A DNA stretch of 64,000 nucleotides from an uncultured Bacteroidales bacterium (GCA_963761195.1 CAVXGA010000012.1:96082-160081); one strand, 5' to 3'; shown: positions 5,068 through 63,690, counted from the stretch's first letter. Numbers and translations: made by a program. The notes: generated from the sequence alone by a model not told the origin.

Positions 5068-5116
5068 TAATTTTATGATTCTTTATTAGATTTGTAGATT
5101 CTTTAAATCAAATAGG

Positions 5117-7956: not shown

Positions 7957-7971
7957 GGTTTGGGATTTGGG

Positions 7972-11071: not shown

Positions 11072-11135
11072 CTCGTGTAATCATTTTATTAAACCTGTTA
11101 AAAAGGAAGCAGGAAATTTAAATAAATTTTTAGTC

Positions 11136-11291: not shown

Positions 11292-11413
11292 AAATGCCTC
11301 CTTAATTACATGATCATTTATGGCAAATGCTTCATAATCTGCGAATTTTATCAGACGACTCCATGACCCCATAATTAAAATTATACGGATGTTAAAAAAC
11401 TAATTAAAGCTAC

Positions 11414-20620: not shown

Positions 20621-20693
20621 TGATCCCGGGAGGGCTCGAACCCCCATCACGAGAACCGGAATCTCGAATTCTATCCAGTTGAACTACGGGACC
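20621..20693 (-). tRNA. tRNA-Arg (anticodon CCG)
   Basis: The reverse complement GGTCCCGTAGTTCAACTGGATAGAATTCGAGATTCCGGTTCTCGTGATGGGGGTTCGAGCCCTCCCGGGATCA folds as a cloverleaf. The anticodon loop is TTCCGGT. Confidence 0.9.
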
Positions 20694-40794: not shown

Positions 40795-41256
40795 ATGACA
40801 GAATTTAAAAATATTAAAATTATTTCAGGAGGCCAGACAGGGGTAGATCGTGCAGCTCTCGATTTTGCATTAGGTCATGGCATTAACTGCGGAGGATGGT
40901 GCCCAAAGGGACGGTTGGCTGAGGACGGACCAATTTTGCTTAGATACCCACTCGACGAAACCAAATCGTCATCTTATAAAGTAAGAACAGAAAAAAACAT
41001 CAGCGAAAGTAATGCAACCATTATTATTTACGACAATAAATTTGATGCGGGTACTGGTCTGACTTTGAATCTTTGTAAAAAACTGGGAAAGCCATATCTT
41101 ATTTTCAAACTGACGGAAGTTTATGACAATTATAGCTTTGCAAATTGGATGAAAACGAACAACATTCAAATTCTAAATATTGCTGGTCCGAGAGAAGGTT
41201 CTGCCCTTGGAATTTATAAGAAAACTTTACTTTTTTTAGAAAAAATATTCCTATAA
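40795..41256 (+). CDS. YpsA-like SLOG-fold protein ('putative molybdenum carrier' family)
   Basis: IISGGQTGVDRAALDFALGHGINCGGWCPKGRLAEDG. Confidence 0.6.
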   Translation: MTEFKNIKIISGGQTGVDRAALDFALGHGINCGGWCPKGRLAEDGPILLRYPLDETKSSSYKVRTEKNISESNATIIIYDNKFDAGTGLTLNLCKKLGKPYLIFKLTEVYDNYSFANWMKTNNIQILNIAGPREGSALGIYKKTLLFLEKIFL

Positions 41257-42118
41257 ATCTGCTTTCAGTATCCTGTTTTTTCCTGACATATCTTTACAAA
41301 TTTCAACATTTTGATAACCTTTGTGTTCAAATAGATCGCATGTCTCCGTGGTTAAAAACTCATTAATTTCGCAGAAGATTTTGCCCTTTTGTATCAAATG
41401 CTCAGCTCCAAATGCTGCAATTGCCCGGTAAAAAATGAGTGGGTCATCATCCTTAACAAAAAGGGCCAGTTCAGGCTCATAATCCAAAACATTTTTTTTC
41501 ATGGCTTTTTTTTCTGAATGCCTTACATAAGGAGGATTACTGACGATAATATCAAAACTCCCGAGTCTGTTCTGGTTTTTTTCATTCAAAAAGTCCATCT
41601 GAAGAAAAGAAATCTCTGTCCTGTTCATCGTCGCATTTTTTTTTGCAATGTCAAGTGCATAGCCTAGAAATATCTATGGCAAGAAGTTTTGCATCGATGC
41701 GATTTTTTTTGATTGAAATGGCTATACAACCCGACCCTGTTCCAATATCTAAAATATTTGGCTCTTTTAATTCACTGCAATCCTGTAGAATAATTTCAAC
41801 CAATTCTTCTGTTTCCGGCCGTGGAATCAATACGTCGGGTGTTACCATAAACTGAAGACCATAAAATTCAGTTTGACCAAGGATGTATTGAATCGGTTTG
41901 TAGTTTTTTAAATCTTTTACCGCGAAATGAATTTTTAACAATTGGGATTCATTAACGGGTTTTTCCGGTTCAGCCAAAATTTTTGTGCGCGTGAGTTCCG
42001 TGTATGCTTCAATAATCAGGAACAGCAACGTATCAGCCTCACGTTCATCATAATATTTCATGAGTTCGGGCCTGTAATAACTTCTGATATCTCCTATCCT
42101 GTTTGACCGTACATCCAT
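41251..42118 (-). pseudogene. prmC: Release-factor glutamine N5-methyltransferase, frameshifted near 41668
   Basis: ILDIGTGSGCIAISI and VSNPPYV are present. The upstream frame ends ...AIDISRLCT*. Skipping one base gives DISGYALDIAKKNATMNRTEISFLQMD. The likely start is MDVRSNRIG at 42118. Confidence 0.85.
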
Positions 42119-42175
42119 TTTTCGAAAGTACTCAAAAAAATGTATTTTTGAGGATGTAAAATTCAATTCACGAAG

Positions 42176-42820
42176 ATGAAAGGAGATATTCTCATACTTG
42201 ATGATAACCACCGGAAAGCGGCCAAACAGGTGGTAGGATTAATTCTTGATGATATTAAAATAGCAACCAATCGATTTGTACTTACGGTTGCTGGTGAATC
42301 CGGTGCTGGTAAATCGGAAGTTGCTGCTTCCATTGCTCAAATTCTTGAGGAAAATAACATAAAATGCTACATCTTTGGCCAGGACGACTACTTCAAACTC
42401 CCGCCAAAAACTAATGAAAGAAAAAGAAAATCAGATATTTCATGGGTAGGAATTCAAGAAGTGAAGCTTGATTTGCTGGATGAAAATTTAAATGATGCGT
42501 TGGAGGGAAAAGCAATTGTAACAAAGCCCCTTGTTGATTTTAATGCAGATAAAATCGAAGAAGAAAAAGTTGACCTTTCAGAATTTAACATGCTGATTGC
42601 CGAAGGTACTTACACTACATTGCTGAAAAACGTGAATTGCAGGATTTTTATTGACAGAAATAAAATGGATACGATAGAATCGCGAAAAAGAAGGGCGCGG
42701 GAAAATCAGGATGAATTTCTGGACAAAATCCTAACCATCGAACATGAAATTATTTCCCGGCATAAGCAGTTGGCTGATATTATCATTTCTAAGGAATGGA
42801 ATGCGACAAGAATTAATTAA
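42176..42820 (+). CDS. P-loop kinase of the PRK/uridine-kinase family
   Basis: Walker A VAGESGAGKSEVA and a size typical of the family. Confidence 0.5.
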   Translation: MKGDILILDDNHRKAAKQVVGLILDDIKIATNRFVLTVAGESGAGKSEVAASIAQILEENNIKCYIFGQDDYFKLPPKTNERKRKSDISWVGIQEVKLDLLDENLNDALEGKAIVTKPLVDFNADKIEEEKVDLSEFNMLIAEGTYTTLLKNVNCRIFIDRNKMDTIESRKRRARENQDEFLDKILTIEHEIISRHKQLADIIISKEWNATRIN

Positions 42821-42883
42821 TTTTCATTCAAATAAAATTGACGAATTCAAAACAAATATTCATGCGCTTTAAGCTGAACAATT

Positions 42884-44140
42884 ATGGAGAATAATTATAA
42901 TCACATCGCCATGTTAAGCACACATGGGTATTTTGATCCGGTTCCTACGTTGGGGATTACTGATACCGGCGGCCAGGTGGTTTATGTGCTCGAACTTTCA
43001 AAAGCTCTGGCACGCAAAGGAATCAAAGTTGATATCTTCACCCGATGGTTCGACAGGACAAAACCCCAGATTGATCCTGTACCAGGTTATCCCGATGTAA
43101 GGGTGATCAGAATCCCTTGCGGTAGCTGGGAATTTGTTCCGAAAGAATTTATTTACGATTTGTTGCCGGAATTATCCTCAAATATGATCCGGTTCATCAG
43201 TAAAAACAACCTGTCGTATGACCTGTTTCACGGGCATTACGTAGATGCCGGCATTGTAATGCTTGAAGTAGCGAATTACTTCGACAAGCCTTCCTATTTT
43301 ACAGCTCATTCACTGGGAGCCTGGAAAAAGGACCAAATGGGCGGAGATCCTGAAGAAATGGAAAAGGTGTTTAATTTCAAGCATCGCATCGCTGAGGAAG
43401 TTCGTATTTTTAAAGCCGTTAACGGACAGACCCTGACTTCATCCGTGCAACTTGAAAAACTGAATAGCCTGTATAATTTTAAGGCTGATAATATTGAAAT
43501 CATTCCTCCCGGAGTGGATATTAACCGATTTCGTATGTCGCGGGCATCTGAGCAAAAAACAATGACAAACCTCCCGGAAAAATACATCCTGAACCTCAGC
43601 CGTATCGATTCAAATAAGGGCCATGACCTGATGCTAAATGCATTTGGCAAAATTGTTCATCAGCTTGACGATGTACACCTGGTTATTGGGGGCGGTTCAC
43701 CAAATCCAAAACCCCGGGAGATTGAAATTTTTGATATGATGCGAAAGATCATCGGTGAAAATAACATGAAAGATAAGGTTCATCTGGTAGGCTATATCAG
43801 TGATGAAATGATGCTCCCCTATTATCAGAATGCCTTACTGTTTGTGCTGCCTTCTGTTTTTGAACCTTTCGGGATGACAACTCAGGAAGCTATGGCCTGT
43901 GGTTGCCCTGTAATTGCTTCAAAATTCGGAGGTATCAGGAACGCGATTACACACGGGAAAGACGGATTACTGATCGATCCGGGAAATGAAGAAGAATTTG
44001 CTGGAGCAATAAAGAGCTTATTGCAAGATGAGGTTCATCGGAAAAGAATTGGCAAAGCGGGAAGTGTTCTTATTCGTAATGAGTATAGCTGGGAAGCTAT
44101 TGCTGACAGATTTCTTGAGTTTTATTTGAAATACAAGTAA
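42884..44140 (+). CDS. Sucrose-phosphate-synthase-like GT4 glycosyltransferase (glycosyltransferase domain only)
   Basis: MLSTHGYFDPVPTLGITDTGGQVVYVLELSKALARKG is the SPS/mannosylfructose-P synthase type N-terminus. VLPSVFEPFGMTTQEAMACGCPV is also present. Confidence 0.65.
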   Translation: MENNYNHIAMLSTHGYFDPVPTLGITDTGGQVVYVLELSKALARKGIKVDIFTRWFDRTKPQIDPVPGYPDVRVIRIPCGSWEFVPKEFIYDLLPELSSNMIRFISKNNLSYDLFHGHYVDAGIVMLEVANYFDKPSYFTAHSLGAWKKDQMGGDPEEMEKVFNFKHRIAEEVRIFKAVNGQTLTSSVQLEKLNSLYNFKADNIEIIPPGVDINRFRMSRASEQKTMTNLPEKYILNLSRIDSNKGHDLMLNAFGKIVHQLDDVHLVIGGGSPNPKPREIEIFDMMRKIIGENNMKDKVHLVGYISDEMMLPYYQNALLFVLPSVFEPFGMTTQEAMACGCPVIASKFGGIRNAITHGKDGLLIDPGNEEEFAGAIKSLLQDEVHRKRIGKAGSVLIRNEYSWEAIADRFLEFYLKYK

Positions 44141-44243: not shown

Positions 44244-45020
44244 ATGAAAGCAATGGAAGATATATTGTTCAGAATAGCTGAAATAAAAAAAGTAGGGAGA
44301 AAAGCTGCCTTGTGTATTATTATCGAAACAAAGGGAAGCTCACCCCGAAAGGCGGGTTCGAAAATGCTGGTTCTCGCAGATTCGACAATTGAAGGATCTG
44401 TTGGCGGTGGTAGTCTTGAGATGAAAGTTATTTCCGATGCACGAAATGTTATGGCGAAAAATCAGCCCCAAAAGTTCACTTACGATCTTGAAGATGATCT
44501 TTCCATGCATTGTGGAGGTACTGCCGAAGTCTACATTGAACCCATCATTCCTGAACTGAATCTGTATATTTTTGGTGCCGGCCATATAGGCAAAGTCCTT
44601 GCGAAATTCGCATCCGGTTTTGGATTCCGCATTATACTTATCGATCACCGGGAAGAAATCACAGATAAAATTGATCTTCCTGAAGTCGAACTGATCCGTG
44701 ATGAATATGCGAACGCTGCCCGGAAATTGGAGTTTAACCCAAATGATTATATTGTAATAGTCACGCCTAAACATGCTTATGATGAGGAAGTTCTTGCAAT
44801 CTGTGCAAAAAAGTCGTTTGCATACCTGGGTATGATAGGCAGTAAAACGAAAGTAGCTTTGGCGCGTAAAAGACTTTTAGAAGAAAAGATTCTTACCGAA
44901 GATGAAATCAACAAAGCAGATATGCCAATTGGGATTAAATTTAATGCACAGACTCCGGAGGAAATTGCCATCAGCATCCTTGCAAAATTGATCGATGTTA
45001 AAAATTCAGGAATCGAATGA
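44244..45020 (+). CDS. xdhC: XdhC/CoxI-family molybdenum-hydroxylase maturation factor
   Basis: N-terminal XdhC domain (TKGSSPRKAGSKMLV) plus a Rossmann part (LYIFGAGHIGKVLA). Confidence 0.8.
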   Translation: MKAMEDILFRIAEIKKVGRKAALCIIIETKGSSPRKAGSKMLVLADSTIEGSVGGGSLEMKVISDARNVMAKNQPQKFTYDLEDDLSMHCGGTAEVYIEPIIPELNLYIFGAGHIGKVLAKFASGFGFRIILIDHREEITDKIDLPEVELIRDEYANAARKLEFNPNDYIVIVTPKHAYDEEVLAICAKKSFAYLGMIGSKTKVALARKRLLEEKILTEDEINKADMPIGIKFNAQTPEEIAISILAKLIDVKNSGIE

Positions 45021-46489
45021 TGAAGGAGGATCAAAATAAGATAAGCTTTGTTTTGGACGACACCATCGTCGACATCGATTTTGTGAAGCAAAACCTCAGT
45101 CCAACAATCACTGTTTTGAATTATTTGCGTTCACTATCTAACCACAAAGGAGTTAAAGAGGGCTGTGCAGAAGGTGATTGCGGCGCTTGTACAATAGTTT
45201 TGGGAGAACTGGATGACACTGATAATCTAATCTACAAAGCAGTCAATTCCTGCCTGGTCTTTCTGCCGATGATCCATGGAAAACAATTGATAACAGTTGA
45301 AAACCTGGCTGTTAAACAAGGTGAGGAAGTTAAACTTCATCCCGTTCAGCAAGCCATGATTGATATGAACGGCAGTCAATGCGGTTATTGCACACCAGGC
45401 TTTATCATGTCCATGTTTGCCTTGTATAAAAACTATAAAGCTCCGTCTGACGAGATCATTAAGGATGCCCTGACAGGAAATCTCTGCCGTTGTACGGGTT
45501 ATCAGCCCATTCTCAGGGCAGCAAAGAAAGCGTGCCGGAATGGAGGTAGTGATCAATTCACAAAAAGTGAACAAAAAATAGTGAAGCTTCTAAAATCCAT
45601 TGCGGTTTCTTCAAAGACGGTTTCAGTCGTAACACGAAACCAAAAATACTTTCAACCGAAAAGTTTGCCTGAATGTTTTGACTTATTGGGAAAATACCCC
45701 GAAGCATTGTGCCTGAATGGATCAACCGATATAGCGCTGAAACAAACCAAAAAATTTGAGTTAATCAAAGAAGTAATCGACCTTTCAGGTATCAAGGATT
45801 TAAGATTCTTCACCGAAAACAAATACGAATTCGGCATTGGATCGGGCTTATCGCTTGAAAAGTTGAAGAATAATCTCAATGGCTCCTTGCCCGCATTGAC
45901 GGATATGATCAGCGTTTTTGCATCGAAACAAATCAGGAATCTTGCCACCATCGGCGGTAACATTGCGACTGCTTCACCCATCGGAGATACAATCCCGCTT
46001 TTGATGGCTTACAATGCTAAGATATGGCTGATCAGCAGGAAAGGAGAAAGAATACTTCCCATTGAAAATTTTGTCCGTGGATACCGGCAAACTGATTTGC
46101 AGAGTGGAGAGATCGTTCATTCGATAATCATTCCAAAAATCAAAGGACAGTTAATCCGGTTTTATAAAGTCTCCAAACGAAAAGATTTGGATATATCAAC
46201 GGTTAGTGCCGGCTTCAGGTTAAAACTCACAAATAACACGGTTGAAGATATTTGTCTTGCCTTTGGGGGGATGGCGGAAATGGTTAAAAGAGCAAGTTCA
46301 ACAGAAGCATTTCTGAAGCAAAAGCAATGGACTAATGAAAATATTAAGGCGGCTCAGAAAATACTATTTAATGAATTTGTTCCCATTTCGGATGCACGTT
46401 CAGGAGCTGAATTCAGGAAAATTGCAGCTAAAAATTTATTGATTAAATTCTTTGAAGAAACACGAAATGAGCTACCTACCGCACAATAG
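45017..46489 (+). CDS. xdhA: Xanthine dehydrogenase small subunit (2x[2Fe-2S] + FAD domain)
   Basis: CAEGDCGACTIVL, CGYCTPGFIMS and CRCTGYQPI, followed by a CO-dehydrogenase flavoprotein-like domain. Confidence 0.85.
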   Translation: MMKEDQNKISFVLDDTIVDIDFVKQNLSPTITVLNYLRSLSNHKGVKEGCAEGDCGACTIVLGELDDTDNLIYKAVNSCLVFLPMIHGKQLITVENLAVKQGEEVKLHPVQQAMIDMNGSQCGYCTPGFIMSMFALYKNYKAPSDEIIKDALTGNLCRCTGYQPILRAAKKACRNGGSDQFTKSEQKIVKLLKSIAVSSKTVSVVTRNQKYFQPKSLPECFDLLGKYPEALCLNGSTDIALKQTKKFELIKEVIDLSGIKDLRFFTENKYEFGIGSGLSLEKLKNNLNGSLPALTDMISVFASKQIRNLATIGGNIATASPIGDTIPLLMAYNAKIWLISRKGERILPIENFVRGYRQTDLQSGEIVHSIIIPKIKGQLIRFYKVSKRKDLDISTVSAGFRLKLTNNTVEDICLAFGGMAEMVKRASSTEAFLKQKQWTNENIKAAQKILFNEFVPISDARSGAEFRKIAAKNLLIKFFEETRNELPTAQ

Positions 46490-48776
46490 CGCTGCAAAAC
46501 ACGTAACAGGAGAATCTGTTTATGTGAATGATATCCTGATCAGTGAACAGTTGCTTTACGGTCACCTGGTTTACAGCAAGCAGGCTCATGCAATAATCGA
46601 AGTAGGAAGCCTGAATAAAGCAAAATCGTTGAGTGGCGTCAAAGCAATTCTTACGTGCAAAGATATCCCCGGCAGCAATCAAATGGGACCTGTTGTTCAT
46701 GATGAACCCTGTCTGGCTGATAATGAAGTCCATTGTATTGGTCAGGTCATTTTATTGATCGCCGCCGAAACGAAGCAAATAGCCCGTGAAGCTGAAAAAC
46801 TGATCAGTATCCGTTACAAAACCCTTGACGCTATTCTTGATCTGGAAACAGCGATTGCTAAAAATAATCGCCTTCATCCATCACGGAAAATAGAAACGGG
46901 CAATATTTCCGAAGCATTCAAACAATGTGACCATATTTTTGAAGGCACCTTAAAAACGGGCGGACAGGAGCATTGGTATCTTGAAACTCAATCCTGTCTT
47001 GCTCTTCCGGGTGAGGGAAAAGAAATGAAATTGTTCAGTTCCACACAACACCCGTCGGAAACGCAAGCCATCGTTGCAGAAGTCCTGGGGATTCAAAAAA
47101 ATGAGGTGGAAATTGAGGTGAGAAGAATGGGTGGGGCTTTTGGAGGAAAGGAAACTCAGGCCAATCATTACGCTGCCTGGTCGGCCCTGCTTGCCAATGC
47201 TACAGGACGTCCCGTAAAAATTCACCTCAACCGCGATGAGGATCAGATCATCACAGGCAAAAGACACAATACACGTTCACAGTATAAAGCCGGATTTGAC
47301 AAGAGCGGAAAGATCCTTGCTGTCGATATTGACATAAATCTGGATGCCGGATGCACAACTGATCTTACCATGGCAATTATGGAAAGAGCCATGTTTCATG
47401 TGGATAATGCGTATTTCATTCCCAACCTGCGGGTGATTGGTAATACATGGAAAACAAACAAGCCGTCGAATACAGCATTTCGAGGCTTTGGAGGGCCACA
47501 AGGAATGGCTGTAATTGAAACCATCATTGACCGCATTGCACGGTTCCTTGGCAAAGATGCAATTGAAATCAGGAAAAGGAATTTTTATAAAACAGGGACG
47601 AACAGCATAACTCATTATGGACAGAAAGTTGAAAACATTCGGCTACCATTGATATACAATCAACTCATCAAATCCTCCGGGTATTTCGAGCGGCGTCAAC
47701 AAATCGACCAATTCAACTCATCCAATCAATTTAACAAAAGAGGCATGGCAATGACTCCCGTCAAATTTGGCATTTCATTTACCACTTCTTTTCTAAATCA
47801 GGCAGGATCACTGGTTAATATCTACAAGGATGGTTCTGTTCAGGTAAATCATGGAGGAACTGAAATGGGGCAGGGACTTCACACCAAAATTTTACAAATT
47901 TCATCTTCAGAATTAGGCATCGATCCCAAATTCATCAAGGTAACGAGCACCAATACATCAAAAGTTCCAAACACATCAGCAACTGCAGCCTCTTCCGGCA
48001 GCGACCTGAACGGCATGGCAGTTAAAATTGCCATCGGTAAATTGAAATCAAGGTTGGCGGATATCGCATTAATGCTTTTAAAGGAAGGTCAAGCGAAGAA
48101 GAAAGACATCATTTTTCAGGATAACCTGGTCTTTAATAAACGAAATCCACAAATTAAAATTCCATTTACTGAATTGGTCAACGCTGCATATTTAAACCAA
48201 ATCAGCCTAAGTGCCACCGGATTTTACAGAACTCCCGGCATTTTCTACGATAAGCAAAAAGGAAAGGGCAATCCCTTCCATTATTTTGCTTTTGGAATGG
48301 CCGTAACCGAAGTGGAAATTGATACACTAACAGGATATGCCAAAGTTCTTCGCACGGATATCCTTCATGATGTTGGAAATTCCGTGAACGAACGTATTGA
48401 CTTTGGACAGATTGAAGGTGGATTTGTTCAGGGAATCGGTTGGGTTACGACTGAGGACATGAAATACGACGCAAAAGGCAATTTATTAAACCATTCACCT
48501 GATACCTATAAAATCCCTACCATTCAGGATATTCCGGAAGATTTCAGGGTTGAAATTCTTAAAAATGCTCCGAATCCCGGCACCATTAAGCAAAGCAAGG
48601 CTGTGGGTGAACCGCCATTCATGCTGGCTTTGTCGGTTTGGCTTGCCATTAAAGATGCTATCTCTGCTGTTGGCAACCATAAAATTGAGCCGGATTTTTC
48701 TTTACCCGCAACCAATGAAATAATATTGGAATCACTGGAGAAATTAAAGTTTCAGCACATAGCAAGCAAAGTTTGA
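46467..48776 (+). CDS. xdhB: Xanthine dehydrogenase molybdopterin-binding subunit
   Basis: RRMGGAFGGKE, AFRGFGGPQG and GEPPFMLA. The start probably overlaps the xdhA stop. Confidence 0.85.
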   Translation: MSYLPHNSAAKHVTGESVYVNDILISEQLLYGHLVYSKQAHAIIEVGSLNKAKSLSGVKAILTCKDIPGSNQMGPVVHDEPCLADNEVHCIGQVILLIAAETKQIAREAEKLISIRYKTLDAILDLETAIAKNNRLHPSRKIETGNISEAFKQCDHIFEGTLKTGGQEHWYLETQSCLALPGEGKEMKLFSSTQHPSETQAIVAEVLGIQKNEVEIEVRRMGGAFGGKETQANHYAAWSALLANATGRPVKIHLNRDEDQIITGKRHNTRSQYKAGFDKSGKILAVDIDINLDAGCTTDLTMAIMERAMFHVDNAYFIPNLRVIGNTWKTNKPSNTAFRGFGGPQGMAVIETIIDRIARFLGKDAIEIRKRNFYKTGTNSITHYGQKVENIRLPLIYNQLIKSSGYFERRQQIDQFNSSNQFNKRGMAMTPVKFGISFTTSFLNQAGSLVNIYKDGSVQVNHGGTEMGQGLHTKILQISSSELGIDPKFIKVTSTNTSKVPNTSATAASSGSDLNGMAVKIAIGKLKSRLADIALMLLKEGQAKKKDIIFQDNLVFNKRNPQIKIPFTELVNAAYLNQISLSATGFYRTPGIFYDKQKGKGNPFHYFAFGMAVTEVEIDTLTGYAKVLRTDILHDVGNSVNERIDFGQIEGGFVQGIGWVTTEDMKYDAKGNLLNHSPDTYKIPTIQDIPEDFRVEILKNAPNPGTIKQSKAVGEPPFMLALSVWLAIKDAISAVGNHKIEPDFSLPATNEIILESLEKLKFQHIASKV

Positions 48777-48949
48777 AGCATATACTTAAAGTACTCAGGT
48801 GTTTTTAATTGAAATATTAAAATACACCTATGAATTGAAGATTTTATTATTCGAAATAAAACCTATATGATTTATGCAATCTTGCATGATATAACCAAAT
48901 TGTACTGGACTTTAGTATTTTGAAAAATAGTTGAATAGAGGTAAAATAT

Positions 48950-49534
48950 TCAACGAAAATATCTTTCATAATCTTCCGGCGTATTGATGTTGATCAGCAC
49001 CTGTTCATCATCCACAGCTACTTTCTTGTGTTTGTAATTGCTTAACCAGTCTCTCAGGTTTAAATCATTTCCCGGACAATCGATGAGTTCTTTAATAATT
49101 TCCCCAGTTAGCAAAACCGGATGCCCTCCCCTTTTGCCATAATAAGGTACATAATATTCCGCATCATCAACACCTGAGATCATTTGACGGATGATCCGTT
49201 TGTCGACAAAAGGATTATCGACATTCTGAATAAAAATATAACCTGCCTTTTCGCAGGCTTTCAATCCGGTTTTAACCGAATAAAATCTTCCGTATTCAAC
49301 ATGTCGGTTTATGATAAACCGGCAATCGTTTAAATAAGGTGAAGGTTGTTTTTGAATTTCTGAATTTAATGTTTCATTTATTACAATTACAATTTCAGTA
49401 ATACCGGCACTTCGATATTCCGTAACAATCTTTTCCAGGAAATTATATTTCGAATCAAACCTGAGAAAAGGCTTCGGCCTGCCCATCCTTTCCGAGTTTC
49501 CGGCAGTTAAAATAACGCAAGTAGTATGATCCAT
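48950..49534 (-). CDS. MobA/MocA-like nucleotidyltransferase (molybdenum cofactor cytidylyl/guanylyl-transferase family)
   Basis: CVILTAGNSERMGRPKPFL. Confidence 0.65.
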   Translation of the reverse strand: MDHTTCVILTAGNSERMGRPKPFLRFDSKYNFLEKIVTEYRSAGITEIVIVINETLNSEIQKQPSPYLNDCRFIINRHVEYGRFYSVKTGLKACEKAGYIFIQNVDNPFVDKRIIRQMISGVDDAEYYVPYYGKRGGHPVLLTGEIIKELIDCPGNDLNLRDWLSNYKHKKVAVDDEQVLININTPEDYERYFR

Positions 49535-49635
49535 TTCTATTTGATGTCATTGGCAAAGCTATAAAATCTTTATTACTACTTTTGCCATGAGATGAGGGAA
49601 ACCAAAATGATAAGTTGCTCTCAAAATCAGCATTC

Positions 49636-50592
49636 ATGCACGACAGAACGTACGAATTAAAAAAAGCATCATGGATCGGAATCCTGGGAAACACAGCCCT
49701 TGCTATTCTGAAAATTGTGATCGGTTTCATTGCCGGTAGTTTCGCCGTTATTGCCGATGGCATTGACACCACTACCGATATTCTTTCCTATTTCATCACG
49801 CTTTTTACCTCGCGGATTATTTCCAAACCTCCTGATACCAAATATCCTTACGGTTATAAAAAAGCGGAAACCTCGGCCACCAAAATACTGGCGTTTATTA
49901 TCTTCTTTGCTGGGGCGCAATTGCTTATCTCGACAGTTTCAAGGCTGCTGTCAGGGCAGCATCGGGAAATGCCTTCAATCATAGCTATTTATGTAACGCT
50001 GTTCAGTATTGCAGGAAAAGCAATTCTTTATTCCTGGCAATTCCGGATGGGAAAAAAAACCGAAAGCTCCATGATCATTGCCAATGCTAAAAACATGCGG
50101 AATGACATTCTCATATCCTTTTCTGTTCTGACCGGGCTGATCTTTACCTTTTGGCTACAAATGCCTGTTTTTGACACCATCATCGCCCTTGCCGTGAGCC
50201 TGTGGATCATTGTGGTCGCATTCGGCATTTACCGCGAATCGAACCTTGAGATGATGGACGGCGTAAAAGACACCACCATTTATTTTAAAATATTCAAGTC
50301 GGTCGATCAGGTCGAAGGCGCACACAATCCCCACCGGATCCGGGTTAGAAAACTGGGCAATATGCTTACAATTTCACTGGATATTGAAGTAGATCAGGAG
50401 ATAAAAGTGAGCGAATCGCATGAAATAGCAGTGTGCGTGGAAGAACGGCTGAAAGCAAACATTGACAATATTTACGATATCATGGTTCATGTAGAACCAA
50501 TCGGAAATATTGAACAAAATGAAACATTCGGGATTTCGAAAGAAATTATTCAGGATGAACACAAACCCTCAAAAGCCCGGTTTATCAAATGA
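49636..50592 (+). CDS. Cation diffusion facilitator family transporter
   Basis: Six TM segments containing ADGIDTTTD-type motifs, plus a cytoplasmic C-terminal domain. Confidence 0.8.
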   Translation: MHDRTYELKKASWIGILGNTALAILKIVIGFIAGSFAVIADGIDTTTDILSYFITLFTSRIISKPPDTKYPYGYKKAETSATKILAFIIFFAGAQLLISTVSRLLSGQHREMPSIIAIYVTLFSIAGKAILYSWQFRMGKKTESSMIIANAKNMRNDILISFSVLTGLIFTFWLQMPVFDTIIALAVSLWIIVVAFGIYRESNLEMMDGVKDTTIYFKIFKSVDQVEGAHNPHRIRVRKLGNMLTISLDIEVDQEIKVSESHEIAVCVEERLKANIDNIYDIMVHVEPIGNIEQNETFGISKEIIQDEHKPSKARFIK

Positions 50593-53500
50593 CAGATAAA
50601 TTTTCGATCATCCCTTTCAGGCAATTGGTCTCGATTGTATTCGCTGAACTCGGCAAAGATGAGTTCTTCGGCATACCACGGGCGATTTTTTTCAATCCCT
50701 CATCCTCCGATCCTTTCCGGATGAACCGTTACGGTGCACTGCTGGAAACGCCTTTAGGGGTGGCCGCCGGTCCCCATACACAGCTTTCACAAAATATCAT
50801 CGCTGCATGGCTTTGCGGTGCCCGGTACATCGAATTAAAAACCATTCAAACACTGGATGAACTATCGGTTTCGAAACCCTGTATCGACATGCAGGATGAA
50901 GGTTATAACTGCGAATGGTCGCAAGAACTGAAAATACATGAATCCTTTGATCAGTATCTCAATGCCTGGATTTTAATCCATCTCCTGAAACATAAATTCG
51001 GGTGGATTGAAGACAAAACTTCCGGAACAATTTTCAATATGAGTGTCGGTTATAACCTGGAAGGGATCATGAACCCGAATGTGCAATGGTTTTTTGAGAA
51101 AATGAAAAACTGCAGCATCGAGAAACAAAGGAAGATTGATGAAATCAGTGATTTATATCCTGAAATAACAGAGATTCCTATTTCTGACTGCATTTCCAAT
51201 AATGTTACTTTATCTACCATGCATGGCTGTCCGCCGGATGAAATAGAAAAGATCGGGACCTACCTGATTGAAGAAAAAAAGTTACATACAGTCATTAAAC
51301 TCAATCCGACCTTACTTGGCAAAGATTTGTTAAGAGAAATACTGACGAACAGTGGATTTGATATAGAGGTTCCGGATCTTGCATTTGAGCATGATCTTAA
51401 ATATCCGGAGGCTGTTTCGATCATCAGAAATTTACAAAAGAAAGCCGAAAAACATCAACTGCATTTCGGATTGAAACTGACGAACACCCTTAGAAACATC
51501 GAATCAGAAAGATGTTTTACCTGCGTCAGAAAAAATGATCTACATGAGTGGAAGGGCGCTTCATCCGGTCTCGGTTCAGTTGGCTAATAAACTGCAAAAA
51601 GACTTTGGCGGAAAGCTTAATATCTCCTTTTCAGGTGGTGCAAATGCTTTTAATTTTCCTGATCTTGTTGCCTGCGGGCTGACACCCGTTACTGTTTGTT
51701 CCGACCTGTTAAAACCCGGAGGTTACGGGCTACTGACCCAATATATTACAAATTTGAGAGAGGCTTTTCGGGATGCGGATGCCGGGTCAATACCAGAATT
51801 CATCCAATATAAAAGCAACCGTAAAGTTGAAGATTGGAGAAAAGCTGGCTTATTGAATCTTTCAGAATATGCCTGTAAAGTCCTGGATTCAAAGGCCTGT
51901 AAAAAGACTGAGATCCATGATCCGACAATAAAAACACACCGAAAGCTCGATAATTTCGATTGTATACAAGCACCCTGTGTGGATGCCTGTCCCACAAACC
52001 AGGATATTCCCGATTACCTGTATTATACAGCAAACTCTGATTTTCAAAAGGCTTTTGAAGTAATAATGCGCAGAAACCCGTTCCCTTACACAACCGGAAT
52101 GATCTGTGATCATCTTTGTCAGAGCAAATGCACACGGATGAATTATGAAGAAGCGCTTCAGATTAGGGAAATCAAGCGTTTTATCGCGGAAAATAAAGAG
52201 AGGGATTTTTCACCTGTTGTAAATCCAGGATTCGGTTTAAAGGTCGCCATAATTGGTGCCGGTCCATCGGGATTATCTGCTGCTTATTTTCTTGTACTTG
52301 CGGGTTTTAAGGTTGATATCTATGAAACAAAGGATCAGCCTGGGTGGAATGGTCTCCGGAGCGATCCCTGCGTTCAGGCTCACCAATAAAGCCTTTATAA
52401 AAGATACTGAGTTGCTTGAAAAGATGGGAATAAAAATACATTACAACATAAAAATTGACCGGGAAAATTTTACACAAATAAAGAACTCAAACGATTTTGT
52501 TTACATCGCTGCCGGGGCTCAGCGATCAAAAAAGTTTGAAATCAATGGAATCGAAGCAGAAGGCATTTTAGATCCCCTGCCATTTTTATTCGACATCAAA
52601 CGAGGTAAAAAGGTGGATGTCGGGAATAAAGTAGTCATCATCGGTGGTGGGAACACGGCAATGGATGCGGCAAGGACTGCCTGGCGGCTTGTAGGTCAAA
52701 ATGGGAATGTTACGATAATTTATCGCCGGACCATCAGGGAAATGCCCGCTGATTCCGGTGAGATCAATGCGGTAAGGGAAGAAGGCGTGGAAATTATTGA
52801 ACTCGCACTTCCGGTGAAAATTAATGAGGAGAACGGAAAAGTCAGGTCAATCACCTGCATTCGGATGAAACAAGGGTTACCAGATGCTTCCGGCAGACCT
52901 AAACCCGTACCTGTCCCGGGTTCTGAATTTGAAATTTTCTGTGATACGGTCATTCCCGCTATCGGGCAGGAAACGGATTTTGACTTTATTGATAAAGAAT
53001 TACTTGAAACCGTTCCTGGTGTTTATGAAACCAAAATTCCGGGAGTTTTTATCGGTGGTGATGCACTTCGGGGTGCTTCCACTGCCATAAACGCCATTGG
53101 TGACGGTAGAAAAGCTGCCGCGAAGATCATCGAAAAAGCCGGAGTTAATTTTGAAATACCATTGGCCCGTTTACGCAATCCTAAAACTTTGGCAGAGCAC
53201 ATGACAAGCCGGATGATTAAAAGATTTCCCGGGCACACGCACGAAATTGAACCAGGAGATCGCAAAAACTTCAGCCTTGTAACCGGAACATTTACCAGTA
53301 TGGAAGCAATTGAGGAGGCCTCGCGATGTCTTTTGTGTGATGAAGTTTGCAATATTTGTGTGACAGTTTGCCCTAACCTCGCTAATTATTCCTATGAAAT
53401 TAATCCAACCAAATATTGCCTGAATAAGATCACACATCAAAATGGAAAGCAGGAAATCATACAGGATGAGCTTTTCGAGGTAAACCAAAAATATCAGATA

Positions 53501-53881
53501 CTCCACATTGCCGACTGGTGCAACGAATGCGGCAATTGCACAACCTTTTGTCCGACTGCAGGTTCTCCCTATAAAAATAAACCGCATCTCTACCTGAGCC
53601 GTAAAGCTTTTGAACAGGACGATGATTGCTATTTTTTGGTTAATAAAAATGGGGACAGTGAACTTATTTATAAGGAGAAAGGAATTACACATCATTTGAC
53701 TGAGCAAGAAAATGCGTATCTTTATTACGTTGATGGAATCAGTATCTCTATTGATAAAAAGACATTCGAAATCATTCGTTTGGAAACAGGAGCTGAAACA
53801 CGTGATTTTCGGCTTCACAAAGCTGCAGAAATGAGCATAGTCCTGCAGGGTGCAAAGAAAATTTACAACACTATTAATTAA
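50589..53881 (+). pseudogene. ygfK: YgfK-like flavoprotein (DHOD/DPD-like TIM barrel + Glt-small-subunit-like FAD/NAD domains + 4Fe-4S), with two frameshifts (about 51492 and about 52342-52344)
   Basis: PLGVAAGPHTQLSQNIIAAWLCGARYIELKTIQ, MIYMSGRALHP, VAIIGAGPSGLSAAYFL, VVIIGGGNTAMDAART, and C-terminal CDEVCNICVTVCPN and CNECGNCTTFCPT. The three listed ORFs join if one base is skipped at each junction. Confidence 0.8.
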
Positions 53882-53888
53882 AAGACAG

Positions 53889-55358
53889 ATGAAGAGCAGA
53901 GAAGAAGTTCTGGAAAATACAATCAGGCGGTGCAGGGAAAAACATATTATCATCCCCACTTACAAACAAATGCGCAATCCTGACTTGATTCCCGCGAAAA
54001 TAAAAGACAAGCTAAAAAACATTGGTTTGTGGGATTTGAACTCCCTTAACCTATTTAGGATCACATGGAAAAACGAGCCAATTGAATTCGGCGGTGGTTT
54101 TGGGAAAGTCAATTTTATAGAATTGCCATCTGAGCTTACAGGGGTTAAAGCCAGAATCATCATGCTGATAGGGAAGTATTTCCCGACAGGTGCACATAAA
54201 GTAGGTGCTACATTTGGTCCGCTGGTCGAAAAACTGGTCTCAGGCCGATTTGATCCTACCCGCCAGAAAGCGTTGTGGCCTTCTACCGGAAACTATTGTC
54301 GTGGAGGAGCCTATGATTCATACCTTCTGGGTTGTCAGTCGATTGCCGTTTTACCCGAAGGAATGTCGAAAGAACGATTCGACTGGCTGCATAAAGTGGG
54401 CGCCGAAGTATTTGCTACACCGGGCAGCGAAAGCAATGTGAAAGAAATTTATGATAAAGTGAAAGAGTTGAAGGCAGAGCGGGGTGATGAAATTGTCAAT
54501 CTGAACCAGTTTGAAGAAATTGGCAATGCACTCTGGCATTATACGGTAACAGGACCGGCTATGGATGATGTTTTCAACAGCGTAAAATTAACCGATTCAC
54601 GGTTCTCAGGACTATTCCTCACGCAGGGTTCAGCAGGAACTTTGGGAAGCGCCGATTATCTTCGTGAAAAATTTCCTCTGATAAAAATCTGCGCCGGCGA
54701 AGCACTTCAATGTCCTACCCTGCTGATGAACGGCTATGGGAGTCACCGCATCGAAGGGATCGGCGATAAACATGTGCCATGGATCCATAACATCAAAAAC
54801 ATGGATCTCGTAGCCGGTATCGATGATGAAGCCAATATTCAGATCATGCGGCTGTTCAATGAACCGGCTGGAAAGGAGTACCTGATCAACGAAAGTGGAA
54901 TGGATCCAGAACTTGTCAATAAACTTGAATTACTCGGCATTTCGTCCATTGCCAACCTCATGGGATCGATAAAGTTGGCCAAATATTTTGAAATGGATGA
55001 GAATGATATAATATTTACTGTAGCCACTGATTCGATGGTAATGTACCAGTCAAGGCTTCAGGAAGAAAGGGAAAATAATGGTGACTTTGACAGGAATGAT
55101 GCGTCTATTGTATACAAGGCTTATTTAATGAATCTCAACATCGACCACATGATCGAAATGACCTATTACGAGAAAAGAAGGATGCATAATTTGAAATACT
55201 TCACATGGGTTGAACAACAGGGAAAGACAGTCGATGAACTGAATGCACAATGGTACGATGAAAACTACTGGAAATCGCAATTTGCGAAAGTAGACGAATG
55301 GGATGAAAAGATAATGGAATTTAATGAACGGACAGGTTTACTGAAAGAATACATTTAA
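53889..55358 (+). CDS. Fold-type II (Trp-synthase-beta-like) PLP-dependent enzyme, about 489 aa, function unknown
   Basis: FPTGAHKVGATFGP contains the candidate PLP lysine. STGNYCRGGAYDS and GSAGTLGS are also present. There are long N- and C-terminal extensions relative to cysteine synthase. Confidence 0.6.
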   Translation: MKSREEVLENTIRRCREKHIIIPTYKQMRNPDLIPAKIKDKLKNIGLWDLNSLNLFRITWKNEPIEFGGGFGKVNFIELPSELTGVKARIIMLIGKYFPTGAHKVGATFGPLVEKLVSGRFDPTRQKALWPSTGNYCRGGAYDSYLLGCQSIAVLPEGMSKERFDWLHKVGAEVFATPGSESNVKEIYDKVKELKAERGDEIVNLNQFEEIGNALWHYTVTGPAMDDVFNSVKLTDSRFSGLFLTQGSAGTLGSADYLREKFPLIKICAGEALQCPTLLMNGYGSHRIEGIGDKHVPWIHNIKNMDLVAGIDDEANIQIMRLFNEPAGKEYLINESGMDPELVNKLELLGISSIANLMGSIKLAKYFEMDENDIIFTVATDSMVMYQSRLQEERENNGDFDRNDASIVYKAYLMNLNIDHMIEMTYYEKRRMHNLKYFTWVEQQGKTVDELNAQWYDENYWKSQFAKVDEWDEKIMEFNERTGLLKEYI

Positions 55359-56617
55359 TGCTTGACAAATTCACATATGCGTGTGTAAATTGTGGACAGC
55401 AGTTTCCGGCTGACAGAATAATGTATCTGTGTCCGGTTTGTTCAGCGACATATAAAGAGAACCCACCCAAAGGAGTTCTGAAAACCATTTATAACTACAA
55501 CGAGCTGATCCGGAAAAAATTGACATTTAAATCCTTAAAAGAAAAGCATTTCATTGATCTATTGCCCATCAAATCAAGCATTGATCTTCCAAAATTAAAA
55601 ATCGGAAATACGCCCTTGTATTCGGTCAAATCCTGGGATAAAAAGATGTTTCCTTTTGGTCTTTATTTAAAAGATGATGCTCAAAATCCGACATACTCCT
55701 TTAAAGACCGGGCATCGGGTATTGTTTCGGCTTATGCAAAGGAAAACAACCTGCAGACAATTATTGCTGCTTCTACCGGGAACGCGGCTTCTTCCCTTGC
55801 AGGAATTTGTGCATCACAGGGTCAGGAGGCAGTTGTTATTGTGCCTGCTGCAGCACCGTTGGCAAAGCTTACGCAGGTTATAATGTACGGGGCAAAAGTG
55901 ATTATTGTGAACGGAAATTATGATGATGCATTTGACTTAAGCGTGGAAGCAACGAAGCATTTTGGCTGGTATAACCGCAATACAGCTTTCAATCCGTTGA
56001 CCATCGAAGGGAAAAAAACAGTCTCTTTCGAGCTTTTCGATCAATTGAATGAGACAATTCCCGACCGCATTTTTGTTCCGGTTGGTGATGGTGTTATTCT
56101 ATCAGGTGTATATAAAGGGTTTGAAGATTTGATGAAGCTTGAAATGATAAAAAAAGTACCGGTTATTGTGGCTGTTCAGGCTGATTGTAGTGATAATCTG
56201 ATCAGCAATCTGGAAAAAGAAACCTTCGTCTCAAAAGGGTGTTATACGGTAGCTGATTCCATAGCTGTCGATTATCCGCGTAATTTCTATATGGCAAGGG
56301 ATTATTTAAAAAAATACAAAGGAGAATGGATAGTCGTTACGGATGAGGAAATCATTGCGGCTTCAAAATCATTGTCAAAAAATACCGGCCTCTTTGCGGA
56401 GCCTGCTTCCGCAGCAGCCATTGCCGGAATGATCAAATATAAAGAATTCGGAATGATCCCGGAGCAATCGAAAAATGTTGTTTTGCTTACGGGAAGTGGG
56501 TTGAAAGACATTCAGGCTATGCAAAATTACATTACCATCCCGGCACCTATTGAGCCATCCATCCTCATACTTGAAAAATATTTACATAATAAACAAATGC
56601 AATTCTCCGGTCGTTGA
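55358..56617 (+). CDS. Threonine-synthase-family PLP enzyme with an N-terminal Zn-ribbon
   Basis: CVNCGQQF...CPVCS, NPTYSFKDRASG and STGNAASSLA. Confidence 0.7.
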   Translation: MLDKFTYACVNCGQQFPADRIMYLCPVCSATYKENPPKGVLKTIYNYNELIRKKLTFKSLKEKHFIDLLPIKSSIDLPKLKIGNTPLYSVKSWDKKMFPFGLYLKDDAQNPTYSFKDRASGIVSAYAKENNLQTIIAASTGNAASSLAGICASQGQEAVVIVPAAAPLAKLTQVIMYGAKVIIVNGNYDDAFDLSVEATKHFGWYNRNTAFNPLTIEGKKTVSFELFDQLNETIPDRIFVPVGDGVILSGVYKGFEDLMKLEMIKKVPVIVAVQADCSDNLISNLEKETFVSKGCYTVADSIAVDYPRNFYMARDYLKKYKGEWIVVTDEEIIAASKSLSKNTGLFAEPASAAAIAGMIKYKEFGMIPEQSKNVVLLTGSGLKDIQAMQNYITIPAPIEPSILILEKYLHNKQMQFSGR

Positions 56618-56839
56618 AACTGATATCAGAGTAAAATCAAAGGAATATTAAAAAAAGATCGGGAAGGAAAGTCGTGCCTAAAGTTCATAATGGTAAAGAT
56701 GAACAGATCATCTTCAAAGCCAATCAAATATTAATAACAGTCAGATAAAAGTTTGATGTTGATTTAGCTATCCAAACTTTGCTTAACCCATTAAAATAAA
56801 ACAGGAAACTTAAAAAGTTAAGTTTCCTAGGTAATTTTG

Positions 56840-56914
56840 GGTGCAAGATGGGGCTTGAACCCACGACCCCCGGAACCACAATCCGGTGCTCTAACCAGCT
56901 GAGCTACATGCACC
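56840..56914 (-). tRNA. tRNA-His (anticodon GTG, with encoded G-1)
   Basis: The reverse complement GGTGCATGTAGCTCAGCTGGTTAGAGCACCGGATTGTGGTTCCGGGGGTCGTGGGTTCAAGCCCCATCTTGCACC has the anticodon loop TTGTGGT. There is one T-T mismatch in the acceptor stem. Confidence 0.85.
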
Positions 56915-58701: not shown

Positions 58702-59235
58702 TTATTTCTTTACCATTGGATCAGGATGCGCAATTAATGCTTTCTTTTCTTCGAAATTAAATGGTTTGTCAAACGGGTTTTCTTTATTATGACATTTTTC
58801 ACAAACTTTCTGATCCGGAACAATCATTCCTTTTGTCTTGGCTAATGCAAGATCCTTCATGATGGTATTTGTTTTATATGCACTTCCCGGACCGTGGCAA
58901 GATTCGCAGGAGACACCTTCAGCTATTGTTATTCCTGCCATCTGGCTATCCTTTAGACTCCCTGCTGTAGAATGGCATTTTATGCAACTGGCTTCTTTGG
59001 TTGGATCTGCAATGTTATGTGCTTTTGCATAAGCTAACGATTTCTCATTGCTCAACGTTTTCATTGCGTTGGCATGCAAACTTTCCGACCAAATTTTATA
59101 CTGTTGACCCGTAGCAGGTTTGTTGTGGCAAATTTTACACTTTGCGGCACCAACATACTGGAAGTCTTGTGCTAAAAGAACGCTACCGCTGATAAACACC
59201 AGACCCAGAATTAGAAATAGATTTTTACTTTTCAT
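58702..59235 (-). CDS. Periplasmic tetraheme cytochrome c (cytochrome c554-like family)
   Basis: Signal peptide and four CXXCH sites: CKICH, CIKCH, CESCH, CEKCH. Confidence 0.8.
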   Translation of the reverse strand: MKSKNLFLILGLVFISGSVLLAQDFQYVGAAKCKICHNKPATGQQYKIWSESLHANAMKTLSNEKSLAYAKAHNIADPTKEASCIKCHSTAGSLKDSQMAGITIAEGVSCESCHGPGSAYKTNTIMKDLALAKTKGMIVPDQKVCEKCHNKENPFDKPFNFEEKKALIAHPDPMVKK

Positions 59236-62577: not shown

Positions 62578-63090
62578 AGACCTTTCATAAAAGAGCGTAC
62601 TGTTCATCTATGCTTTCCTTTTATAAATCTTCTAATCAGCATTCATCATCTTGATTATTGGTTAAGTGTGTTTTGTTTTAATGGCAAATACTTTCCTAAT
62701 CTAAAATTCTACAAGTATTTTAAGGATAACCAGCATTATCAGAACATTCTACCAAATAATTGTCCGTTAGTTTAACTTAAATCTTTACTTGTTAGGGTAA
62801 AACAGTTGAAATTTATTAGCAAAAAAGCTGCATTATATCATTATAATAACAGTTTTATATCATAGTATCTGCATTGTCCATATGTATGTATATATCTACA
62901 TTTATGCCAATTTAAAATAAACACAATTGTAATATGTTCGTACATTTAATTAACTCATTTCTTTGTTTGCGGCGCTTATTACTTTCGGGGTTTTTATATT
63001 GCAGAGTGACTGCCAATTATCACTATAATTAAAGTATCAAAATAGCGACAGTTAATCACAGGAACTATTTATTTGAAAGATAAATTTACT

Positions 63091-63690
63091 ATGAAACATA
63101 AAAATCACACAAGTCCATTAGTACCGGTTATTTTATTCGTGTTTCTCTTTGTTCTGCTTTGGGGTTGCAGTAATAATAAAAAATCAGAATCCATTGAAAC
63201 CAAAGATGAAATTGCTCAGGTAAATATTGCAAAAGATGAATCTTCCGACGCTTTTAAAGATAACGAAATTGCAATAGAAGCACCCCCTTTCACAGATGGT
63301 ATATTTCCCTGTAATGATTGTCATTCAGATCAGGTACCTAATCCGGTAAGAAGAAAATTGGTTGATATGCACGATGATATTGATGCGATATTTAACCACG
63401 ATAGTGAAAACCGCTGGTGCCTTGACTGCCATGATTTGAATCAGCGGGATTCTTTAAAACTTGCCAGTGGAAAACGCATAGGATTTGACGAATCGTACAA
63501 ATTATGCGGACAATGTCATGGAGATAAATTAAGAGATTGGAAAGTGGGGGTTCATGGAAAACGGACAGGTGAATGGAATGGGAAAAAACAATATCTTTTA
63601 TGCGTGCATTGCCATAATCCGCATTCGCCTAAATTTAAACCCTTAAAGCCGCTACCTCCTCCGGTACGGCAGGAAGATATTCATAAATAA
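63091..63690 (+). CDS. Tetraheme c-type cytochrome lipoprotein (cytochrome c3/NrfB-like)
   Basis: Lipobox LLWGC and four CXXCH sites: CNDCH, CLDCH, CGQCH, CVHCH. Confidence 0.75.
   Translation: MKHKNHTSPLVPVILFVFLFVLLWGCSNNKKSESIETKDEIAQVNIAKDESSDAFKDNEIAIEAPPFTDGIFPCNDCHSDQVPNPVRRKLVDMHDDIDAIFNHDSENRWCLDCHDLNQRDSLKLASGKRIGFDESYKLCGQCHGDKLRDWKVGVHGKRTGEWNGKKQYLLCVHCHNPHSPKFKPLKPLPPPVRQEDIHK

Follow-up and report, generated by a model that had tools for sequence, protein, structure and literature searches.

Two PLP enzymes in a ygfK operon of an uncultured Bacteroidales bacterium may take the place of YgeX in a variant of the reductive urate pathway

The DNA analysed here is a 64-kb stretch from an uncultured Bacteroidales bacterium (hereafter the window), in which positions 44244-56617 hold a block of genes for a xanthine dehydrogenase, a YgfK-like reductase and two pyridoxal phosphate (PLP) enzymes that we call PLP1 and PLP2. 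The genome is Bacteroidota-like, with a GC content of ~38%, genes of PorE and the type IX secretion system (T9SS), Por_Secre_tail domains and multihaem cytochromes. The block opens on the forward strand with an xdhC-type maturation factor of molybdenum hydroxylases (44244-45020), whose product exceeds two Pfam cut-offs (PF02625, 77 bits; PF13478, 121 bits) and matches the NCBIfam XdhC models with scores below theirs. Then come xdhA (45017-46489, +), for the small subunit of xanthine dehydrogenase (XDH) that carries 2Fe-2S and FAD (domains Fer2_2, FAD_binding_5 and CO_deh_flav_C; TIGR02963, 540.4 against a cut-off of 467), and xdhB (46452-48776, +), for the molybdopterin subunit (TIGR02965, 1018.7 against 849.5). 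The start codon of xdhB is uncertain, the TTG used here giving a 38-nt overlap with xdhA. With both subunits above the equivalog cut-offs and xdhC adjacent, we regard this enzyme as a xanthine dehydrogenase of the XdhA/XdhB type. The next gene, on the reverse strand (48950-49534), encodes a MobA/MocA-like nucleotidyltransferase, probably a molybdenum cofactor (Moco) cytidylyltransferase (PF12804, 93.9 against 27; TIGR03310 MocA/YgfJ, 103.6, below the cut-off of 186). Forward again follow a CDF-family cation efflux transporter (49615-50592; TIGR01297, 215.7 against 82), ygfK (50589-53881), for an NAD(P)H/FAD/FMN/Fe-S reductase, in three open reading frame (ORF) pieces matching TIGR03315, and the genes of the PLP enzymes: PLP1 (53889-55358; 489 aa), of fold type II with a weak PALP match of 51 bits, and PLP2 (55358-56617; 419 aa), with a ThrC-like profile match and an N-terminal Zn-ribbon. 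Every gene named in the preliminary description of this DNA, drawn from the sequence before our analysis, was recovered in its place with Pfam and NCBIfam profiles.

The CDF gene overlaps ygfK by 4 nt, 7 nt separate ygfK from PLP1, and PLP1 overlaps PLP2 by 1 nt; because of this spacing we read CDF-ygfK-PLP1-PLP2 as a single operon, which a terminator-like hairpin closes on both strands (56802-56829; a stem of 11-12 bp, then a T-run). Matches in a scan for sigma-70-type promoters, other promoter types lying outside it, were no more frequent than in shuffled sequence. The reading frame of ygfK is broken twice. Its three pieces tile positions 2-308, 320-573 and 566-976 of TIGR03315, and comparison with the intact orthologue (1094 aa) of the nearest relative, a locus that we call L085 and whose PLP1 is 90% identical, reveals two +1 insertions, one near 51492 (CTT[A]GAA) and the other near 52341 (CCTGG[G]TGGAATGG, within the GGMV dinucleotide-binding motif), in addition to one 6-nt in-frame insertion. 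The frame is otherwise free of stop codons, and the product is 67-78% identical to the L085 protein. Once both extra bases are removed, the protein has 1096 aa, very close to the ~1100 aa first estimated, and scores 906.8 with TIGR03315 (cut-off 835.3): repaired, it belongs to the YgfK-type 2,8-dioxopurine reductases, whereas the gene as assembled is frameshifted. Two other genes of the window are also frameshifted, prmC (41251-42211, -) and that of an M48 (CAAX-type) peptidase (3792-5067, +), in which Pfam profile positions 8-68 and 69-179 lie in different frames. Four indels in three genes over 64 kb suggest an indel-prone assembly, probably from long reads. Given these other breaks, and given that L085 has an intact YgfK in the same order (MocA on the reverse strand, then CDF, YgfK, PLP1, PLP2 and a T9SS-PKD gene forward), the ygfK frameshifts are probably assembly errors and the gene is probably intact in the organism. 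Selenocysteine recoding was considered as a cause of the breaks and rejected, as they are +1 frameshifts and not in-frame TGA codons.

In E. coli, ygfK belongs to a cluster that extends from ygeW to xdhD. When every window ORF of 70 aa or more was compared by BLASTP with the E. coli K-12 proteins of this cluster (region L084; E <= 1e-8), no homologue of ssnA, hyuA, ygeW, ygeX, ygeY, yqeA, yqeB or yqeC was found, and the earlier remark that the usual hydrolase, lyase and kinase genes of the cluster are not visible holds over the full 64 kb. YqeB and YqeC are markers of the selenium-dependent molybdenum hydroxylase trait; SelD was outside this search. Nor does the window encode a urate-reducing molybdenum hydroxylase of the XdhD/DOPDH type (TIGR03311 or TIGR03313), XdhAB being its only ORFs of the XDH family. 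An Rfam scan of the window returned two tRNAs and no Moco, purine, guanidine or other riboswitch.

PLP1 is described by no curated profile model, and public records name it 'cysteine synthase' or 'PLP-dependent enzyme'. Its scores lie far below the cut-offs for CysK and CysM (TIGR01139, 90.6 against 351; TIGR01136, 90.4 against 344; TIGR01138, 32.5 against 394) and below that for diaminopropionate ammonia-lyase (NF006058, 18.5 bits against 276), while its BLAST match to E. coli YgeX covers 46 residues only and is of superfamily level. The best PDB matches are cysteine synthases (E ~1e-17), and a Foldseek search with an AlphaFold2 model (pLDDT 70, pTM 0.74) returned CysK, CBS, beta-cyanoalanine synthase and the O-ureido-serine synthase DcsD, at ~24% identity and a TM-score of ~0.7 on the target. 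PLP1 shares with these enzymes the core fold and the superfamily-level active site of CysK/CysM, that is, the catalytic lysine, the Asn-loop 'S-T-G-N', a glutamine and a serine at the pyridine nitrogen; the residues invariant in 39 homologues are K104 ('TGAHK'), S132-T133-G134-N135 ('STGNY'), Q207 and S352/S353 ('GISS'). It differs from them in its low identity and scores, in extensions of ~75 aa at the N-terminus and ~110 aa at the C-terminus of the CysK/CBS-like core, and in a context of purine catabolism as opposed to sulfur assimilation. Judged from its residues, this predicted active site supports beta-elimination or beta-replacement chemistry, not membership in the CysK family.

The PLP1 family is large and unusually conserved, with identities of 57-85% across phyla. 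Database relatives number more than 8000, and the best 120 of these, 79-100% identical, come from metagenome-assembled genomes (MAGs) labelled Bacteroidales, KSB1, Desulfosarcina, Cloacimonetes and Chlorobi; in a library clustered at 50% the family falls into a handful of full-length clusters. GTDB species genomes contain at least 582 PLP1 loci; among the best 80 (57-81% identity) at least 15 phyla are represented, with an Asgard MAG as one of the hosts. In a MAG of Hodarchaeota (Asgard archaea; L080, 9992-12789), a PLP1 with 57% identity is followed by a divergent PLP2-like gene (31%), and this PLP1 could have arrived by horizontal transfer or by contamination of the bin. A contig labelled Desulfosarcina sp. 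(L001, JAOKOG010000004.1) carries a Por_Secre_tail (T9SS) gene and a PLP1 82% identical to that of the window, and may be mis-binned.

PLP2 is named threonine synthase (ThrC) in public records. It exceeds the cut-off of TIGR00260 for this enzyme (187.3 against 167.1) and aligns with the solved structures 6cgq (B. subtilis), 2d1f (M. tuberculosis) and 1uim (T. thermophilus) at E ~1e-48. Besides this alignment, it has the SFKDR lysine motif and, in common with PRK05638-type proteins, the N-terminal Zn-ribbon (CxxC-x12-CxxC, residues 9-28, with C9, C12, C25 and C28), which is kept in 119 of 120 database homologues. Its scores with the more specific models PRK05638 (224 against 421) and PRK08197 (214 against 303) are below the cut-offs, and its similarity to E. 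coli YgeX, 24% identity over 153 residues, is of superfamily level. Three motifs set PLP2 apart from the solved threonine synthases, which have STGNT, NPxR(L/I)EG (within NSVNPxR(L/I)EG in 6cgq and 2d1f) and PVGNAGN: the window protein reads STGNA, NPLTIEG and PVGDG, and PLP2 together with all 36 of its cluster-linked homologues follows the pattern STGNA, (T/A)(A/G)xNPx(T/L)xEG and PVGDGxx, so that by these motifs it does not qualify as a ThrC. The three altered motifs are what we take to be the site for the phosphate of O-phosphohomoserine in the T. thermophilus structures, a point for which our literature search gave no confirmation. The contexts differ too, thrA and thrB accompanying threonine synthase and purine catabolism accompanying PLP2.

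The gene neighbourhoods of 83 PLP1 loci (L001-L083), many of them on short contigs, were surveyed with ORFs labelled by their BLASTP matches to genes of the window and of the E. coli cluster. PLP2 was found in 39 of the 83, YgfK in 28, YgeW-like proteins in 26, the XDH molybdenum subunit in 24, the carbamate kinase YqeA in 18, SsnA in 16, HyuA in 14, YgeY in 13, the XDH FeS and FAD subunits in 12 each, XdhC and MocA in eight each, and YgeX in a single locus (L076). YqeB was near PLP1 in none and YqeC in one (L030). The chance expectation is ~0.35 loci per single-copy gene, for flanks totalling 1.06 Mb and an assumed genome of 3 Mb. Directly upstream of PLP1 lies YgfK (18 loci), YqeA (11) or YgeW (six), and directly downstream PLP2 (22) or HyuA (six). 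When only the loci with at least 8 kb on each side are considered (n=32), one or more core genes are present in 22 and two or more in 15. Partners exceed the NCBIfam cut-offs for selenium-dependent XDH (876 against 830) and D-hydantoinase (518 against 393) in L001, and for YgfK (1227 against 835), YgeW (630 against 453) and YgeY (523 against 321) in L027. Unsupervised clustering of the neighbouring ORFs brought out no new family in more than eight loci, apart from antisense shadow ORFs inside PLP1. Across phyla, PLP1 and PLP2 remain linked to genuine genes of the pathway, and YgeX is almost totally absent from these clusters. The association of the PLP genes with ygfK and xdh in other genomes, on which the preliminary description had made its proposal depend, therefore holds across 83 loci and many phyla.

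The arrangement of individual loci is informative as to the place of the pair. YgfK-PLP1-PLP2 is continued directly by XdhD-like, SsnA and HyuA genes in L001, L005, L056 and other Bacteroidota, and stands as a bare three-gene unit, with PLP2 or YgeX in third position, in L019, L076, L085 and the window. The three genes of the L076 unit (a Bacteroidota MAG, 2056-8051, with unrelated flanks) form an operon in which a true diaminopropionate ammonia-lyase (NF006058, 425 against 276) follows YgfK and PLP1; this lyase, the YgeX orthologue of the census, is located exactly at the usual place of PLP2. A metagenome scan anchored on it returned two loci, neither with a purine context. PLP2 abuts or overlaps a YgeY-like gene in L020, L079 and L081, to be compared with the adjacency of ygeX and ygeY in E. 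coli, and PLP1 often comes directly after carbamoyltransferase and carbamate kinase genes. The pair lies in L030 in the middle of a single-strand operon of ~20 kb that encodes XDH, SsnA, two ornithine carbamoyltransferase-like proteins (OTCases), carbamate kinase, PLP1, PLP2, XDH, YgfK, an amidohydrolase and XDH. This locus and L006, L023, L063 and L073 (from Cloacimonadota, Spirochaetota and others) have two or three OTCase-like paralogues, ~30% identical to YgeW, together with carbamate kinase and often no YgeY; they are consistent with phosphorolysis of both ureido groups before the PLP step, potentially with two ATP per urate. L073 adds a PnrA-like substrate-binding protein, of a family known to bind purine nucleosides. 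The gene after PLP1 in L046 (Cloacimonadales, 9995-12798), where no purine genes are nearby, encodes a 433-aa triple-RidA (L-PSP) protein. RidA is an enamine/imine deaminase and a partner of aminoacrylate-forming lyases, which hints that the product of PLP1 in L046 is an enamine or imine. Downstream of YgfK-PLP1-PLP2 in L019 (9367-13937) we also observed two rhodanese-domain proteins, a porin and a 401-aa MobA-like NTP transferase, that may form a set for handling sulfur or selenium and Moco.

The MocA-like gene is divergent upstream of ygfK in L007, L011, L012, L058, L068 and L085 as it is in the window. The CDF transporter is particular to the window lineage: it heads the ygfK operon of the window and of L085 and is missing from all 83 census loci, and we rejected it as a component of the pathway for this reason.

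The pathway in which YgfK acts, reductive urate (or 2,8-dioxopurine) degradation, was established in 2025 in E. coli and clostridia (10.1101/2025.05.19.654654; 10.1101/2025.04.24.650524, Liu et al.; PMC12507026, Life Metab). Urate is converted to 2,8-dioxopurine by XdhD/DOPDH, reduced by YgfK and ring-opened by SsnA; HyuA then turns ureidomethyl-hydantoin into 2,3-diureidopropionate, YgeW (with ATP from carbamate kinase) and YgeY strip its two ureido groups, and YgeX converts the resulting 2,3-diaminopropionate to pyruvate and NH3 (10.1101/2025.05.19.654654; 10.1101/2025.04.24.650524). Our loci resemble this system in that the window YgfK is orthologous, with a MocA-like transferase and an XDH-family enzyme alongside, and in that related loci join the PLP pair to selenium-dependent XDH, SsnA-like proteins, HyuA, YgeW, YqeA and YgeY. 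They differ from it in three respects. Two unrelated families of fold-type-II PLP enzymes, the CysK-like PLP1 and the ThrC-like PLP2, are found in place of YgeX; most of the hosts are anaerobes from the environment that have not been cultured (Bacteroidota, Cloacimonadota, Chlorobiota, Spirochaetota, Synergistota and others) and not gut Bacillota or Enterobacteria; and the window lacks XdhD/DOPDH, SsnA, HyuA, YgeW and YgeY next to its CDF-headed operon. YgeX, or DpaL (NF006058, TIGR03528), is itself a fold-type-II PLP enzyme with the same place in the logic of the cluster and the same proposed step, but neither PLP1 nor PLP2 is its orthologue. All canonical steps but the last have orthologues in PLP1-type clusters, and YgeX alone is systematically missing.

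Since YgeX is the one canonical gene in this position, it is most likely the gene that the PLP pair replaces, and the block is probably a partial, split-up reductive urate system in which PLP1 and PLP2 take over its role. The preliminary description had proposed a variant anaerobic route for purines or urate with the two PLP enzymes instead of the usual hydrolases. A route with conserved PLP enzymes stands; their substitution for the hydrolases does not, because the partners of the pair in related clusters include SsnA, HyuA, YgeY, YgeW and carbamate kinase, beside which it sits. That these genes are lacking around the window operon reflects the fragmented layout of its lineage and not a trait of the pathway variant. 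L085, which has in common with the window the MocA-like transferase, CDF, YgfK, PLP1 and PLP2 (XdhCAB being present in the window only), shares this layout. XdhD/DOPDH, SsnA, HyuA, YgeW/YqeA and YgeY would be encoded elsewhere in the genome. In the scheme that we propose, XdhAB, matured by XdhC and the MocA-like transferase, would oxidize hypoxanthine and xanthine to urate; YgfK, as a flavin/Fe-S reductase dependent on NAD(P)H, would dearomatise 2,8-dioxopurine (isoxanthine); and PLP1 and PLP2 would act last, on the C3 diamino or ureido amino acid (2,3-diaminopropionate or possibly albizziin), from which PLP-dependent beta-elimination via aminoacrylate would yield pyruvate and ammonia. As for the division of labour, PLP1 would be the universal partner and PLP2 the enzyme in the position of YgeX. 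They could act on D- and L-isomers, or on diaminopropionate and albizziin, respectively or conversely, or PLP1 could add a step absent in E. coli.

Several points weigh against this scheme. The substrates of both PLP enzymes are deduced from genomic context. Neither the window nor L085 has XdhD/DOPDH, SsnA, HyuA, YgeW or YgeY within reach, and the SsnA-like proteins of the related clusters, although their best match is SsnA, score 368 and 341 against a cut-off of 444. If PLP1 alone were the analogue of YgeX, it would be redundant beside the true YgeX of L076, and if PLP2 were, the step of PLP1 would be left unexplained. Furthermore, the intermediates of the pathway are proposed to be D-configured (PMC12990295), whereas the usual substrates of enzymes of the CysK and ThrC types are L-amino acids. 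Finally, in about 10 of the 32 loci with long flanks no gene of the pathway lies within 10 kb of PLP1, and the role of PLP1 may be broader than this pathway; the neighbours of such loci are mixed (2-hydroxyacid dehydrogenase, an ABC substrate-binding protein, an EamA transporter, DUF3810), the triple-RidA protein being the sole suggestive partner.

Another possibility, to which we give limited credence, is that the PLP enzymes act elsewhere in the same pathway. PLP1 could, for example, beta-eliminate urea or carbamate directly from albizziin (3-ureido-alanine), bypassing YgeY, or it could salvage the C3 unit by a beta-replacement that gives serine or cysteine and leave the final deamination to PLP2 or YgeX. 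The scaffold of PLP1 is of the CysK beta-replacement type with the ureido-handling DcsD among its structural neighbours, PLP1 stands beside a true YgeX in L076, YgeY is missing from the clusters L006, L030, L041 and L073, and the bare units of L019, L076, L085 and the window contain YgfK and PLP1 with only PLP2 or YgeX. Clusters without YgeY, however, hold two or three OTCase-like carbamoyltransferases and carbamate kinase that could still yield diaminopropionate, and YgeY accompanies PLP1 in 13 loci. A related and equally tentative idea is that YgfK-PLP1-PLP2 forms an autonomous three-enzyme module, with a PLP1 reaction that the E. coli and Clostridium pathways do not have; candidates are direct beta-elimination or replacement on a ureido amino acid such as albizziin, and a reaction that captures the C3 unit in serine or cysteine. 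In this case a new enzymatic activity would be assigned to PLP1, whose family is very large and unusually conserved, and anaerobic purine catabolism would have a distinct lower branch, going beyond a simple exchange of YgeX.

That the block is a decaying remnant, with ygfK a true pseudogene, the downstream half of the cluster (XdhD, SsnA, HyuA) lost and purine catabolism no longer supported, is unlikely. The two frameshifts of ygfK and the 64 kb devoid of XdhD, SsnA, HyuA, YgeW and YgeY would fit such decay, as would the uninterrupted YgfK-PLP1-PLP2-XdhD-SsnA-HyuA run kept by L001, L005 and L056; but the frameshifts in the unrelated housekeeping genes prmC and M48 peptidase point to the assembly, the rest of the ygfK frame is free of stops and encodes a product 67-78% identical to that of L085, and L085 has intact YgfK, PLP1 and PLP2 in the same truncated layout. 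We consider it even less probable that PLP1 and PLP2 serve cofactor maturation, for instance by supplying sulfur or selenium to molybdenum hydroxylases as (seleno)cysteine-type intermediates. CysK-like enzymes can make (seleno)cysteine, genes for XdhC, the MocA-like transferase and the molybdenum hydroxylase adjoin the pair, rhodanese genes follow the module in L019, and clusters of the YgfK family are part of the selenium-dependent molybdenum hydroxylase trait (Haft & Self 2008, PMC2276186). Yet after PLP2 and YgfK the commonest partners are YgeW, YqeA and YgeY of the lower pathway, often without nearby XDH (L031, L038, L063, L069, L079), the trait markers YqeB and YqeC are practically missing from the census (0/83 and 1/83), and both the RidA partner of L046 and the exchange for YgeX in L076 point to amino-acid deamination. 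Least probable of all is that the pair consists of ordinary cysteine- and threonine-synthase isozymes lying beside ygfK by chance, the outcome that the preliminary description had named as fatal to its own proposal. It has in its favour the public annotations and the TIGR00260 score of PLP2, and against it the purine-pathway linkage kept across at least 15 phyla, a PLP1 score of ~90 bits where the cysK cut-off is 351, the three ThrC motifs changed in all 36 cluster-linked copies of PLP2, and a window in which neither gene has a hom/thrB or cysE context.

If YgeX is replaced by PLP1 and PLP2, as we favour, two uncharacterised and mis-annotated PLP enzymes conserved in many environmental anaerobes would define a variant of the known pathway. 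We found no published description of it in the literature searched, and neither 2025 study mentions Bacteroidota, Cloacimonadota or genes resembling those of cysteine or threonine synthase. One survey counted 'YgeX' by the PALP domain PF00291 (PMC12507026), which PLP1 and PLP2 carry too, and the other relied on BLAST searches started from C. sporogenes genes; PLP1/PLP2 clusters and YgeX clusters would be told apart by neither. Conservation of the pair extends over at least 15 phyla, mostly in uncultured anaerobes of sediments, digesters and groundwater, and would widen the range of the pathway well past host-associated Bacillota and Enterobacteria. It also provides a testable function for two large families that are mis-annotated today, PLP2 being counted as ThrC in current metabolic reconstructions of such MAGs. 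The need for two PLP enzymes may be linked to the questions of stereochemistry and ureido-cleavage order left open for the lower pathway (PMC12990295).

The surroundings of the block contain other features. Just upstream of xdhC (40795-44140) are genes for a circularly permuted YpsA SLOG protein, a uridine-kinase-like P-loop kinase and a GT4 glycosyltransferase. One tRNA gene (56840-56913, -) lies directly after the operon hairpin and the other at 20621-20693 (-), while a HepT-like RNase and an adjacent MNT-type nucleotidyltransferase (8874-9504, -) resemble a toxin-antitoxin pair. Beyond the operon, multihaem c-type cytochromes with 4, 19 and 4 CXXCH motifs are encoded at 58702-59235 (-), 59778-62393 (+) and 63073-63690 (+), respectively; these genes are syntenic with cytochrome, Fe-S and NrfD genes of L085, and the region suggests a module for respiratory or extracellular electron transfer in T9SS-bearing Bacteroidota.

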